DNA from: Candidatus Magasanikbacteria bacterium GW2011_GWA2_56_11
GTDB taxonomy: Bacteria > Patescibacteriota > Patescibacteriia > Magasanikbacterales > UBA922
Direction of reading: 5' to 3'
Assembly (NCBI GenBank): GCA_001004885.1
Contig: LCRX01000001.1
Span: 9,849 to 73,848 of the forward strand
Length of the DNA: 64,000 nucleotides
The notes under the pieces are model-generated. The model was not told the DNA's origin and did no database searches. It was given only the letters and a program-made list of their open reading frames with translations. A program made the position numbers and the translations under genes. Positions 43,782 to 48,226 of this stretch are shown here, in pieces (the stretch's first letter is position 1; each line of letters opens with the position of its first letter).

Positions 43782-43854
43782 GCCATCTTAGCTCAGCTGG
43801 TAGAGCAACGGTTTTGTAAACCGTAGGTCGCGGGTTCGAATCCCGCAGATGGCT
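43782..43854 (+). tRNA. tRNA-Thr (anticodon TGT)
   Basis: GCCATCTTAGCTCAGCTGGTAGAGCAACGGTTTTGTAAACCGTAGGTCGCGGGTTCGAATCCCGCAGATGGCT; perfect acceptor stem. Confidence 0.8.
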
Positions 43855-43859
43855 CACAA

Positions 43860-43943
43860 GGGTCGGTTCCAGAGCGGTCAAATGGGGCAGACTGTAAATC
43901 TGCTGGCTCTACGCCTTCGCAGGTTCGAATCCTGCCCGGCCCA
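43860..43943 (+). tRNA. tRNA-Tyr (anticodon GTA, long variable arm)
   Basis: GGGTCGGTTCCAGAGCGGTCAAATGGGGCAGACTGTAAATCTGC... close to E. coli tRNA-Tyr. Confidence 0.8.
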
Positions 43944-43951
43944 CATAATTT

Positions 43952-43978
43952 GAAAAGCACCCAGCGGGTGCTTTTCAA
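43952..43978. terminator. Hairpin AAAAGCACCC-AGC-GGGTGCTTTT after tRNA pair
   Basis: perfect 10-bp IR flanked by A/T runs. Confidence 0.7.
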
Positions 43979-44052
43979 ATCGGCCTCTAAGTTGCCTCCG
44001 GCTGAGCTTCCTGCTATACTAAAAGCGTTTTATTTACTTCTAATTAATCCCT

Positions 44053-44313
44053 ATGGTGAAAAGCCTGTGTGGCGTGCATAAGCTCGCCCTGGTGCTCTTG
44101 GTTGTCGGCGGTCTCAATTGGGGTCTGGTCGGCCTGTTCGATTGGAACCTGGTTACCGCCCTGTTCGGTTCCGTCCCGATGATCGAGCGCGCGGTCTACG
44201 TGCTTGTCGGCCTCTCGGCGGTGTTCATGCTTTTGAGCGGGATGTGCAAAAAATGCGGCGCCTGCTGCCAGTCGGGCGGGATGAAGGCGGCGGAGGGAGA
44301 AAAAAAGGCCTAG
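44053..44313 (+). CDS. DUF378 family small membrane protein
   Basis: LVLLVVGGLNWGLVGLFDWNLVTALFG...VYVLVGLSAVFML matches the DUF378 pattern. Confidence 0.65.
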   Translation: MVKSLCGVHKLALVLLVVGGLNWGLVGLFDWNLVTALFGSVPMIERAVYVLVGLSAVFMLLSGMCKKCGACCQSGGMKAAEGEKKA

Positions 44314-44334
44314 TATTCTGGATAAGAAATTAAA

Positions 44335-44364
44335 TAAAGCCCCCGCGTGGGGGCTTTATTTTGG
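44335..44364. terminator. Hairpin AAAGCCCCCGCGTGGGGGCTTT + TTTT
   Basis: perfect IR between convergent genes. Confidence 0.7.
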
Positions 44365-44418
44365 TCTAACCTGATAATGCGCTAGGGTTTCTGGGGAAAT
44401 TTACAGTTTTCAGCCGAT

Positions 44419-44991
44419 TTACCGCGCTACTATGCGCCTGATTCCGGCCTTGTGCTCGAGCGCGCCAACGCGTCCGTCGAGTTCATGGTAGTCAGTTTGC
44501 CAGGCGGTTTGCTGCAGGCTCAGTTCGATGCGTTCCTGGCCTTCTTTGAGGACTTGAATGTCGCTTTTCATTTCCCGCACGTCGCTTTTAATATCCGCTA
44601 CTTCGCTCTTTAACCCTTGTACGTCGCTTTTAAGGCCTTGTACGTCGCCTTTAATACCCTGTACGTCGCTTTTAAGGCCTTGTACGTCGCCTTTAATACC
44701 CTCTACGTCGCTTTTAAGACCTTTTACTTCGCTTTTGAGCCCCTGTACGTCGTCTTTAAGACACTGCACGTCGCCTTTCATTTCCCCCACATCGTCTTTA
44801 AGTCCTTGTACATCGCCCTTAAGACACTGCACGTCGCTTTTAATCCCCAGTATCTCTCCCTTAATTCCTTGGATTTCGCCTTTGACCCCGTGTAGTTCAG
44901 TGTTGAATTTTTCTGTTATTTCAGCAAAACCGCTAGCCACCATCACGGCCAAGTCGTCCAAAGTGATTTTTTTGCCCCCCATAAAAAACAC
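44419..44991 (-). CDS. Hypothetical heptad-repeat protein (~14 x [K-(G/S)-(D/E)-V-Q-G-(L/I)])
   Basis: translation ...KGDVQGLKDDVGEMKGDVQCLKDDVQGLKSEVKGLKSDVEGIKGDVQGLKSDVQGIKGDVQGLKSDVQGLKSEV...; no signal peptide. Confidence 0.55.
   Translation of the reverse strand: MFFMGGKKITLDDLAVMVASGFAEITEKFNTELHGVKGEIQGIKGEILGIKSDVQCLKGDVQGLKDDVGEMKGDVQCLKDDVQGLKSEVKGLKSDVEGIKGDVQGLKSDVQGIKGDVQGLKSDVQGLKSEVADIKSDVREMKSDIQVLKEGQERIELSLQQTAWQTDYHELDGRVGALEHKAGIRRIVAR
44560..44900. repeat. 21-bp tandem DNA repeat (~16 units; 42-bp higher-order unit GTACGTCGCTTTTAAGGCCTT / GTACGTCGCCTTTAATACCCT) encoding the heptad repeats
   Basis: read directly from sequence. Confidence 0.85.
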
Positions 44992-45130
44992 TTAAAAATA
45001 ATGGCGCGCTCTCGGTTCAGTATACCAGGAAAATAAGGGGCGTCAATTTTGGTTTTATAAACAAAAAAACGCCTGGGTGCGTCTTGGGGATGGGGTGTGT
45101 CACTCTCTGTGGGGGTATAGTCTCGCCCGG

Positions 45131-46724
45131 TCAGTCTCCGATGAGGCCGGCGAGCGTGAGGAGCGGCTTCGCGACGCCGCCGATGCCCTCGCCGACGATC
45201 GAGCCGACGGCGATGGTGGTGAGCGTCATCTCGGACCACTTCAGTAAGCGCCCCAGGACGACCCAGAGCAGGATGCCGCCCAGGAAGAACCCCAGGTCGT
45301 AGCCGATCGGCAGGATTAGGCCGATCCCGATCCCGATCGAACCCGGCAGCCAGCGCTTGAACTTCGTCTCCTCGAGAAGCGTGTAGGCGACGCCGATGAG
45401 GGCGCCGATCAGCAGGGCCTCGAGGGCGAAGTCGGGGAGGGGCTTCTTGCCCTCGAAGATGAGGGCGCTCGTGGCCCAGATCTTGGCCACCGGGGCCGGG
45501 AGCGTCCCGGTCTCGAAGTTGAGCGATTCGGCCGTCGCGATCTGGCCGAAGACGAAGGCGGCGATGAGCGCGCAGGGGATGATGGTCGCCGTCTGCAGCC
45601 AGAACTGGACGCCCGGCCGGACCTTGAACCATCGGCCGTAGGCCAGGTCGCCTGCAAGGTTGCCGGCTTGGGCGCCGCTGCCGGCGACCATACCGGCTCC
45701 GGTCAGCGTCGCGTCCGCGGCCGGCGCTCCGCACATGGCGGTAAAGCCTTGGAGGAGCACCCCCATCACCCGCGCTGGGTTGAACGCTGTCTGCGCCGCC
45801 GCCCGGGTGGCGATGATGTTTTGCAGAAGGCCGCCGACGACGATGAGGCCGATGACGAGCATTACCGAGAGCCCCCACCCGATGTGCAGGAACAGCACGG
45901 TGGCGAGCAGGCTCACGGCCGCGAACTCCGGCGTGAGGTCGAGCTATTGGAAGACAGCCATAAGCGTCCTGCATATCGGCGGGCAGGTAGCGCGCCATCA
46001 CGACGAGGACGATGGCGCCGACGAGGAAGCCGACGCTGGTGCGCAGGCCCATGAGGTAGGCGCCTCCGATCGCGAAGGGCGACCAGGCGATGGCCGCCCC
46101 GTAGGCCGCGAGCCCGAAGATCGCGAGCTCGGTGCTCTCGGGGACGAGGGCGAAGCCGCCGTCGCTGTTCAGGACCACGTAGCCGCAGCAGGCGACGAAC
46201 GTGGCCAGGAGGTAGTACGGCTGCCGGCGGTCGCCGCGCTCGGCCAGGGTCTCGATGATGCTCTTCGTGGCCACCGAGCTGGGCCAGGGCAGCTTGTCGC
46301 GCACGATGAGGAGCTCGCGCAAGAGCGGCACGAAGGCCAGGCCGACGAGGCTCGTGACGACGATGAAGGACACCATGCCCCAGAACGTCAGGGCGCCGCC
46401 CACCATGAACTTGGCCGCGAAGAAGTTCGAGACAAAGCCCAGACTCCCTCCGGCCGATCCCATCGTGGCCACGATCACGAGCTCGTGCGAGCTGATCTTG
46501 GTCCGCGAGAGGAAGAAGCAGGCGAAGAAGATGAGAGCCGCGATGGTCGGCCCTTCCTCGATCACCCCGAACGACAGGGTGAGGTAGGAGTTCATGGCGC
46601 ACAACAGGGCCGCGAGCACGAAGCCCGCGGCCACGCTCCGGAACGTCAGGGTCTGGGCCGCGGGCGCCGGGGAAACCGGCTCGGCCTGCGGTTGGCTTAC
46701 TTCCGCTACACTTGCACTCACCAC
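45131..46724 (-). pseudogene. OPT-family oligopeptide transporter gene, apparently frameshifted near 45930-45960; ~68% GC
   Basis: N-terminal 300 aa in one frame (…LCAMNSYLTLSFGVIEEGPTIAALIF…) and C-terminal 261 aa in another frame; junction …MQDAYG | LDLTPEFAAVSLLATV…. Confidence 0.55.
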
Positions 46725-46957
46725 TCACCTCGCTTGTACTAACAGAGAGTGACACTTCTTCTGTCCACCTCTCCGGGTCTACCAACTTTCTGCCGCTTCT
46801 GCGGCAGCATGCCCTTTCGAGATGGACATGTTTCTCCCTGTTAGCAGTTGAATTGTAGAGAACAGATTGGCAGAAGCTTATAGCGAAAGCAGCGGGTTTG
46901 TCAAGGCGGGATGGACAGGCGGTGGACGGCCGGGTACAATAAAAACGTTCTATTTTT

Positions 46958-47821
46958 ATGCCCGAATTACCCGAAGTCGAAACTATCCGCCGCGATTTGG
47001 CCGAGCGGATCACCGGCAAAAAAATCGCCGGGGTGTCGGTCCGCCATGCGAAAACCGTGCGCGGCGCGCCGGCTGTTTTTTCGCGGCGTTTGGTTGGCCG
47101 CTCGGTGCGGGCGATACACCGCGTCGGCAAGCTGCTTATATTTATCTTCGACGTCCCCGATTACCAGCTGCTTGTGCACCTGAAAATGACCGGCCAGCTC
47201 ATTTATCGCGGCCAGACGGCGTTAGTCGCTGGCGGACATTTCCTGTCCGGGGCGGTTTTGGAATTGCCGGGCCGCCATACGCGCGTGGTCATCTCTTTCT
47301 CCGACGGCGCCGAGTTGTTTTTTAACGATATGCGTTTGTTCGGGTACATGCATTTATCGGACCCGGAAACGGTAGACCGGGTAAAGAAAACTTACGGTAT
47401 CGAACCTTTGACTCCGGATTTTACCCTCGAGAGGTTCCAAAAAATTGTGCGGCCACGCCGAACGAGCATCAAGGCCGTGCTGCTGCGCCAGAACCTAATC
47501 GCCGGGCTGGGTAACATCTACGCGGACGAAGCCTGTTTTCGGGCCGGTATCCGTCCGGATCGTCCGGCTCGCGGTTTGACCCCGGAGGAAATCGTGCGGC
47601 TCCACCGGGCCTGCGAACACGTAATCCGCTTGGGCATTAAACATCGCGGAACGACTTTCAACAGCTTCGTAGACGCCGACGGCCGCAGCGGGGGGTTCCT
47701 TAGGCTGCTGCGAGTCTACGGCCGGGACGGAGAGCGATGCCTGGGATGCAAAACCGCCCTTATTAAAAAAATCAGGACAGCCGGGCGGGGTACCCATTTT
47801 TGTCCGGTGTGTCAAGTATAA
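46958..47821 (+). CDS. mutM: Formamidopyrimidine-DNA glycosylase
   Basis: MPELPEVETIRRDL N-terminus (Pro2 nucleophile), C-terminal zinc finger C..C...CPVCQ. Confidence 0.9.
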   Translation: MPELPEVETIRRDLAERITGKKIAGVSVRHAKTVRGAPAVFSRRLVGRSVRAIHRVGKLLIFIFDVPDYQLLVHLKMTGQLIYRGQTALVAGGHFLSGAVLELPGRHTRVVISFSDGAELFFNDMRLFGYMHLSDPETVDRVKKTYGIEPLTPDFTLERFQKIVRPRRTSIKAVLLRQNLIAGLGNIYADEACFRAGIRPDRPARGLTPEEIVRLHRACEHVIRLGIKHRGTTFNSFVDADGRSGGFLRLLRVYGRDGERCLGCKTALIKKIRTAGRGTHFCPVCQV

Positions 47822-47941
47822 TTGTGATAGGCTATTTTATAGCCGGGACAGCGGCCTGGGCAGAAAATCCCCGCCATCCGAAGCGTCCGAACGCAATTTC
47901 GCCGAAGCCTCCCCGCACGATCTTGCCTGCCCGACAAAATC

Positions 47942-47970
47942 TTGACACGTTTAGAACGTTTGGTTATACT
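47942..47970 (+). promoter_or_regulatory. Promoter TTGACA-N17-TATACT for tRNA-Val/Thr transcription unit
   Basis: perfect -35 and near-perfect -10 with 17-nt spacer. Confidence 0.55.
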
Positions 47971-48030
47971 AGACCCGTTTTACGGACAAGGCCTGCCTGC
48001 CGTAGTCCGCTAGCTTACGGACATAACTAG

Positions 48031-48104
48031 GCACGCCTAGCTCAGTTGGTTAGAGCATCTCGTTTACACCGAGAGGGTCGGGGGTTCGAATCCCTCGGCG
48101 TGCA
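48031..48104 (+). tRNA. tRNA-Val (anticodon TAC)
   Basis: GCACGCCTAGCTCAGTTGGTTAGAGCATCTCGTTTACACCGAGAGGGTCGGGGGTTCGAATCCCTCGGCGTGCA. Confidence 0.8.
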
Positions 48105-48149
48105 CACCTCCGCCCCGCTTTGGCGGGTTGCGGTACCAGGCAAATACAA

Positions 48150-48222
48150 GCCGTTGTAGCTCAGTTGGTAGAGCGCGTCCATGGTAAGGACGAGGTCACC
48201 GGTTCAATCCCGGTCAACGGCT
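48150..48222 (+). tRNA. tRNA-Thr (anticodon GGT)
   Basis: GCCGTTGTAGCTCAGTTGGTAGAGCGCGTCCATGGTAAGGACGAGGTCACCGGTTCAATCCCGGTCAACGGCT. Confidence 0.8.
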
Positions 48223-48226
48223 CGGG

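Follow-up and report, generated by a model that had tools for sequence, protein, structure and literature searches.

The window, i.e., the whole stretch of 64,000 nucleotides that was analysed, contains a minus-strand ORF at 44419-44991, which we call the heptad-array gene. The gene order around it is TPR protein, tRNA-Thr, tRNA-Tyr, DUF378, heptad-array gene, frameshifted OPT, Fpg, tRNA-Val and tRNA-Thr. The elements of the gene and its nearest neighbours are the following:

43860-43944: tRNA-Tyr
44053-44313: DUF378 gene, convergent to the heptad-array gene and located between tRNA-Tyr and the heptad-array gene
44332-44361, minus strand: predicted intrinsic terminator (13-bp stem with 6 G-C pairs, T-rich tail) between the heptad-array gene and the convergent DUF378 gene
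44419-44982, minus strand: coding sequence, 187 aa plus stop; start codon ATG 44982, selected because the starts of the paralog and the family align there
44422-44547, minus strand: C-terminal family module, residues 146-187, ERIELSLQQTAWQTDYHELDGRVGALEHKAG...
44548-44883, minus strand: array of 16 heptads K-x-[DE]-[VI]-x-x-[LIM], residues 34-145, register e-f-g-a-b-c-d, the expanded part of the putative rod
44618-44702, minus strand: youngest duplication, an 85-nt stretch with a perfect 42-nt (two-heptad) repeat
44884-44982, minus strand: N-terminal family module, residues 1-33, motif KKITLDDLAxMVxxGF
45019-45046, minus strand: predicted sigma-70-type promoter, TTGACG, 16-nt spacer, extended -10 TGgTATACT (10/12 matches, TG present)
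45066-45085, minus strand: terminator-like hairpin 3′ of the upstream OPT gene, separating the OPT and heptad-array transcription units

The original prediction had described a minus-strand heptad-repeat ORF of 190 aa without a signal peptide. The ORF as such is confirmed and contains 16 unbroken in-frame heptads, but its start was probably placed too far upstream: ATG 44982 (187 aa, MGGKKITLDDLA...) is more likely the start codon than GTG 44991 (190 aa, three additional residues), because it aligns with the start of a short paralog in the same genome and with the start of the protein family described below. The 187-codon frame is intact, and the protein begins with MGGKKITLDD..., ends with ...IVAR and is acidic (pI 5.2). 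Read by eye, its sequence contains neither a signal peptide nor a lipobox, a sortase motif or a membrane segment; the missing signal peptide agrees with the earlier statement. Since promoter and terminators lie on the minus strand and both protein ends match the paralog and the family, the minus strand is taken as the coding strand and the heptad-array ORF, judged from its sequence, is a genuine gene with its own predicted transcription unit. Plus-strand ORFs over the array are by-products of the repeat. No Shine-Dalgarno sequence precedes the gene, and the same applies to almost every gene checked in the window; its absence is therefore uninformative on the function of the gene.

The gene had been placed directly beside tRNA genes at the edge of an accessory region. 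It is indeed near tRNA-Tyr but not adjacent to it, as the DUF378 gene lies between, and it is located in a stretch that varies between related genomes. Within the same taxonomic family, the site 3′ of DUF378 is directly occupied by tRNA-Thr(ggt) in one genome (G023) and by a membrane protein followed by Fpg in another (G003), and the family gene is absent from the DUF378 site in the related genomes inspected. A comparison of 43782-48223 with four related loci (L051, L055, L057, L059) likewise gave a DUF378-to-tRNA-Thr(ggt) stretch that differs in each. This stretch appears to be a small variable region beside a tRNA cluster, and the heptad-array gene is, by this comparison of sequences, a lineage-specific occupant of it. 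The gene is not flanked by att-like direct repeats that would mark it as mobile. The neighbouring OPT oligopeptide transporter gene (45131-46724, minus strand) is split over two frames near 45916-45950, with both halves matching Pfam OPT (model residues 2-248 and 377-618), and represents either a pseudogene or a sequencing error. In genome G005, a convergent OPT gene follows DUF378, and the portion of it that this locus covers is free of frameshifts.

Layout and age of the heptad array

At 44560-44852, Tandem Repeats Finder detected 14.0 copies of a 21-bp unit (score 199, 71% matches), and higher-order periods of 42 bp (76%) and 63 bp (76%) came out as well. This agrees with the 21-bp repeat and 42-bp higher order described originally. 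The repeat number of about 14 given at that time has to be corrected, however: counted in the register of the protein, 16 of 16 consecutive heptads are exactly 21 bp long, with zero indels. Position 1 (e) is Lys in all 16 units, position 4 (a) is Val (13) or Ile (3), position 7 (d) is Leu (9), Ile (5) or Met (2), and position g is Asp (12) or Glu (4). Gly is found at position c in 10/16 units, and Gly or Ser at position f in 14/16. The whole protein contains two Cys residues only, both inside heptads. They occupy position c (44774-44776 and 44837-44839; residues 53 and 74), exactly three heptads apart, and the units bearing them, KSDVQCL and KGDVQCL, are a pair differing by one base.

At the DNA level, the mean identity between 21-bp units amounts to 0.69-0.73 at every lag. 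Gly at position c is encoded by all four codons (GGA, GGG, GGT, GGC), and the codons for Leu, Val, Gln and Lys differ between units with the residues kept. Given units of about 70% identity with scrambled synonymous codons, we therefore read the array as old and its heptad pattern as being under purifying selection. Some younger steps overlie this old pattern: the units at residues 48 and 69 differ in 1/21 bases at an offset of 63 bp, those at residues 97 and 111 are identical in 21/21 bases, and the longest exact direct repeat measures 43 nt at offset 42. Slippage could plausibly occur only in the perfectly periodic 85-nt stretch 44618-44702. All duplication steps are multiples of 21 bp and, thus, never broke the heptad phase; since the unit is also a multiple of three, slippage cannot switch the reading frame. 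The GC content of the gene is 0.49 with a GC3 of 0.53, compared to higher values in the neighbours (GC3 0.67-0.80). With the frameshifted gene nearby, this may point to a decaying or a recently acquired copy. A degenerate DNA pattern for LQQxAWQxDY, applied to metagenome contigs, hit 8 loci, all by chance. It revealed neither an ortholog nor a strain variant of the long copy, and no ortholog was found elsewhere either.

The search of protein databases for the heptad unit, proposed as a check in the original prediction, was successful in that near-identical KxDVQGL units were found in Firmicutes and others. Small heptad-array proteins of these organisms (P0002, P0009, P0032, P0049) have a near-identical heptad and a size similar to that of our protein, but their N- and C-terminal regions are unrelated to its ends. 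As the likeness is confined to the repeat, it may be convergent. Near-identical KxDVQGL proteins (P0002/P0009, P0032/P0049, P0018/P0010) differ from each other by exactly 7 or 14 residues, with an identity of 97-100% outside the gap; some of them are labelled Lachnospiraceae. Read as alignments, these pairs directly show that heptads are gained and lost in a different family with the same repeat; for a variation of the repeat number in the protein studied here, their support is indirect only.

A short paralog and a family of small coiled-coil proteins

The host genome (1.25 Mb in 23 contigs, 99% complete; relatives 0.7-1.4 Mb) encodes a short paralog of 84 aa at G000:C1:88953-89204 (= L002:1492-1746, minus strand), about 35 kb from the heptad-array gene and about 15 kb past the end of the window. 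It consists of the same N- and C-terminal sequences with only about three heptads between them. The N-terminal ends of both proteins are 52% identical (query residues 3-50) and the C-terminal ends 59% (query residues 144-184). The promoter of the paralog is composed of TTGACA, a 16-nt spacer and TGGTATACT, so that both genes have the form TTGAC[GA]-16-TGGTATACT in common, and a GAGCGCCATT block is found in the 5′ UTR of both. Because promoter hexamers and GAGCGCCATT block are common to both paralogs, their sequences suggest a duplication of the whole transcription unit. A promoter block conserved family-wide across genomes was not found. In a tree of 36 members, the sister relation of the two proteins was not recovered and most forks were unsupported; the long copy groups weakly with P0124 and P0127 (80/81). 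A separate hairpin terminator belongs to the short paralog, as does a perfect Shine-Dalgarno sequence, AAGGAGG, which nearly all genes checked in the window lack. The paralog has no match in Pfam or NCBIfam.

An exhaustive phmmer search with the paralog returned 253 cluster representatives at E<=1e-3, with a median length of 102 aa among the best 150 of them; most family members are 70-130 aa long. The clusters of ten proteins were looked up, and their sole label is “hypothetical protein”. In the ESM Atlas, the clusters nearest to the paralog fall in CPR phyla, and the host genome and its relatives have sizes in the range of CPR/Patescibacteria-type bacteria. From a sample of 301 genomes of the phylum, 73 contain matches to a family HMM built from 20 members, and many of these have more than one copy. 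The same HMM matched the heptad-array protein at positions 9-59 with the N-terminal part (E 1.1e-12) and at positions 29-94 with the C-terminal part (E 7.9e-16). In alignments of the family, the protein bears the N-terminal motif (K)KITLDDLAxMVxxGF, whose L, A, G and F hardly vary among 72 family members, and the C-terminal motif ExIxLRLxxxAxxxExxxLxxRVxxLExKxG with nearly invariant R and E. When it was aligned with 19 other members, its residues ~51-144 faced a gap in nearly all of them. By alignment, the protein is an ordinary member of the family whose middle is longer by about 100 residues. Other members have heptad arrays of their own, e.g., L017 with a run of about eight heptads of the RFEQID type and L036 with repeated ones of the GMEGRM type; since these arrays differ in length, a heptad middle of variable length is, as far as the sequences tell, a property of the family. 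A search for longer or fused family forms gave none; the long matches are pure coiled coils, including one trimeric autotransporter stalk. Neighbour clustering over 30 family loci gave no conserved partner (LemA at 3 loci, T2SS-F/PilC-like at 2).

One structure can be connected to the family. PDB 7O97, released in 2022, is entitled [quoted passage not shown] and holds two chains. The family profile matches it from end to end (E 1.8e-10); for the paralog and the heptad-array protein, the E-values are 1.8e-5 and 3e-4, respectively, with the N-terminal module of the latter aligning to residues 5-69 of 7O97. Superposition on the model of the paralog gives an rmsd of 1.6 Å over 73 residues at 27% identity. 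Like the heptad-array protein, 7O97 has an N-terminal KxITLExLxxMVxxGF, a C-terminal RxxxxExKL and a long single helix, and these matches place it in the same family. However, it is a 93-aa engineered variant with few heptads instead of 16, and its title implies a non-canonical segment in the native protein which our protein does not have. The title fits the presence of a beta-layer motif in a minority of family members: TATKxD directly follows the GF motif in P0186, P0198, P0211, L029 and L035. Among the family representatives, the beta-layer motif occurs in only 5/147. The beta-layer motif [aliphatic]-A-T-K-x-[DE] is absent from the heptad-array protein and from the paralog, as read from their sequences.

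Tcar0761 of Thermosinus carboxydivorans is a stand-alone coiled-coil protein with 14 tandem MATKDDIAN nonads (Hartmann et al., 2016, eLife, PMC4786415), and the beta-layer motif has been described for the DUF1640/CCDC90-like and DUF3782 families (PMC4786415). A family locus in genome G193 (L014:894-1169, minus strand) encodes three nonads, TATRADISN, MATKDDIAN and LATKAELAE, the middle one being identical to the beta-layer repeat of Tcar0761 (PMC4786415), which links the CPR family to alpha/beta coiled coils. The stalks of Tcar0761 and DUF3782 resemble the heptad-array protein as stand-alone prokaryotic coiled coils with an internal tandem array flanked by heptad segments; the repeat unit of our protein is a canonical heptad, in contrast to the nonad with beta-layers in Tcar0761. 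We treat the likeness in sequence as a lead on the oligomeric state rather than as a sign of family membership. DUF3782 (PF12644) had no match in the genome at E<=10. XhlA (PF10779) and DUF7310 (PF23991) matched neither the locus of the heptad-array gene nor that of the paralog in the genome search; DUF7310 is touched at E<=1e-3 by 17/72 other family members.

Predicted rod and competing explanations

AlphaFold2 predicted one uninterrupted helix for the monomer of the heptad-array protein (residues 7-178, mean pLDDT 94.7) and a single helix for the paralog (residues 7-75, pLDDT 89). At 0.1485 nm per residue, the predicted rods are about 26 nm (about 172 residues) and about 10 nm long, respectively. 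AlphaFold2 is prone to draw long helices with high confidence for heptad repeats of any kind, and two Gly per heptad, here at c and f, are unusual in a stable coiled coil. By established coiled-coil rules, a hydrophobic seam at a and d together with acidic g and basic e′ residues is typical of homo-oligomers with parallel chains in register, and g-g′ and e-e′ contacts would repel each other in an antiparallel arrangement. With Val/Ile at a, Leu/Ile/Met at d and Asp/Glu at g pairing with the invariant Lys e′ of the next heptad, we infer that the chains assemble in parallel and in register into a homo-oligomeric coiled coil. Dimers and trimers are both compatible with Val at a and Leu at d. Lpp is a trimer, and by analogy with Lpp and the trimeric beta-layer coiled coils a trimer is probably the more likely state. 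Foldseek found no match for the paralog model in the PDB, and a wide structural search with the same model returned generic long helices only (Z about 6.5), 7O97 among them; in the ESM Atlas, a DUF3782-containing cluster heads the list of its structural neighbours.

Taken together, we consider it likely that the heptad-array gene encodes a length-variable cytoplasmic homo-oligomeric rod of an unnamed CPR family, lengthened by in-frame heptad duplications. The middle of the protein grew from about 3 to 16 heptads when segments of 21, 42 and 63 bp were duplicated in frame; most of these duplications are old, and one 42-bp step is recent. The protein would stay in the cytoplasm, where its conserved ends may bind or cap and the heptad array may only set the distance between them, which would make it a rod, spacer or adaptor of variable length; such a cytoplasmic rod or adaptor role is our best guess. 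The acidic pI of 5.2 argues against simple DNA binding. A defence signal was not obtained, as PADLOC matched only the coiled-coil arms of SMC-like proteins. In kind, the feature is ordinary, namely an in-frame heptad expansion of a coiled coil.

The original prediction had suggested a coiled coil or fibrous scaffold and, further, a protein typical of surface/fibre or phase-variable proteins. The coiled coil is upheld by the a/d heptad seam and the AlphaFold2 helix, but the surface fibre is not, as export signal and anchor are missing. A protein exposed at the surface or forming a fibre, with a rapidly varying repeat number in the sense of phase or antigenic variation, would account for a tandem in-frame repeat with a perfect, 42-periodic 85-nt stretch, for the differences of whole heptads between near-identical KxDVQGL proteins of other families, and for the location of the gene in a stretch that varies between related genomes. 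It is at odds with the lack of signal peptide, lipobox, sortase motif, membrane segment and anchor; signal peptides are likewise missing from the paralog and from most family members, which are 70-130 aa long. Moreover, a 21-bp unit leaves the frame unshifted, and units of about 70% identity with scrambled synonymous codons point to an old array. We regard this reading as decidedly unlikely. That the gene is a decaying or non-functional copy, or a repeat assembly artefact, without a present role is quite unlikely. Its GC3 is low compared to its neighbours, the adjacent OPT gene is frameshifted, no ortholog of the long copy was found, and the related genomes inspected lack the gene at the corresponding site. 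On the other hand, all 187 codons are in an intact frame, 16/16 units are in phase, and core residues and Lys are kept despite synonymous divergence, which speaks for purifying selection. A near-consensus promoter and a strong terminator also argue against decay, and a missing Shine-Dalgarno sequence is normal in the window.

Three further readings assign the protein to a known group. A homolog of the Braun lipoprotein Lpp, tethering envelope layers, is suggested by database scores: Pfam LPP (PF04728) is the best-scoring Pfam model (51.8 bits, cut-off 29.1), NCBIfam PRK15396 matches at E 3.1e-17, and the Lpp chains 1EQ7 and 9RLD in the PDB match at E about 1e-3. Both proteins have the xDVQxLx register in common, which in Lpp (PF04728; 1EQ7) builds a parallel coiled coil. 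However, the Pfam score adds up over four stretches of one repeated heptad, the NCBIfam match is limited to the repeat and, at 62.6, stays far under its cut-off of 108, and the paralog with the same non-repeat ends matches no Pfam or NCBIfam family. Further, Lpp is a 58-residue exported lipoprotein of diderms with a lipobox and a C-terminal Lys. Our protein is three times longer, has neither signal peptide nor lipobox Cys and ends with ...VAR. Membership in Lpp was rejected on the missing lipobox, and we give the homology almost no credence. 

A membership in the membrane-anchored head-neck-stalk proteins (DUF1640/CCDC90-like) or in the DUF3782/Tcar0761 alpha/beta coiled coils has some points in its favour: some family members bear TATKxD or MATKDDIAN right after the GF motif, the DUF3782-containing cluster tops the structural neighbours in the ESM Atlas, and P0034, a homolog with a heptad array, shows a DUF1640-type layout with a C-terminal hydrophobic tail. 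It is very unlikely nonetheless: PF12644 is absent from the genome even at E<=10, DUF1640 (PF07798) reaches 26.4 bits in hmmscan and 12.7 bits in the genome search against a cut-off of 33.5, and the protein has neither a membrane anchor nor the beta-layer motif. That the protein is a structural component of a phage, for instance a head decoration, tail needle or fibritin-like protein, is highly improbable. The PHROG “minor head protein” does match at E 3.8e-21, tail needle and virion structural protein are matched as well, and a PDB match to T4 fibritin has an E-value of about 8e-4. Every one of these matches is confined to the heptad array, however, and the paralog has no PHROG match better than E 0.009. 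The neighbouring genes are cellular (DUF378, OPT, Fpg, tRNAs), and att-like repeats around the gene are missing.

For annotation, it follows that the Pfam LPP match is spurious and that the label “surface/phase-variable” should not be applied. On its own, the lengthened putative rod is a modest finding, a clean example of a coiled coil extended by in-phase DNA duplications. The pair of a short and a long paralog with identical ends constitutes a natural experiment on rod length. In a bolder and, in our view, unlikely version, the short (about 10 nm) and the long (about 26 nm) paralogs would be a matched set of rods, i.e., a tunable spacer or ruler, co-assembling via their ends into a filament or a fixed-distance bridge. 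If this were true, the family would provide ultra-small bacteria, and these specifically, with a cytoskeleton-like or distance-setting element, its rod length being tuned by gain and loss of heptads.

The family is named in no database, yet it is abundant in ultra-small bacteria and occurs in about a quarter of the phylum genomes sampled. The best-scoring match of the paralog is P0123 (NCBI KAL0232761.1, Eukaryota sp. GEM-RC1, 1859 aa; E 6.4e-23), a giant eukaryotic protein which is matched in 8 separate stretches; either the whole family unit is repeated there in tandem, or bacterial DNA may have contaminated that assembly.
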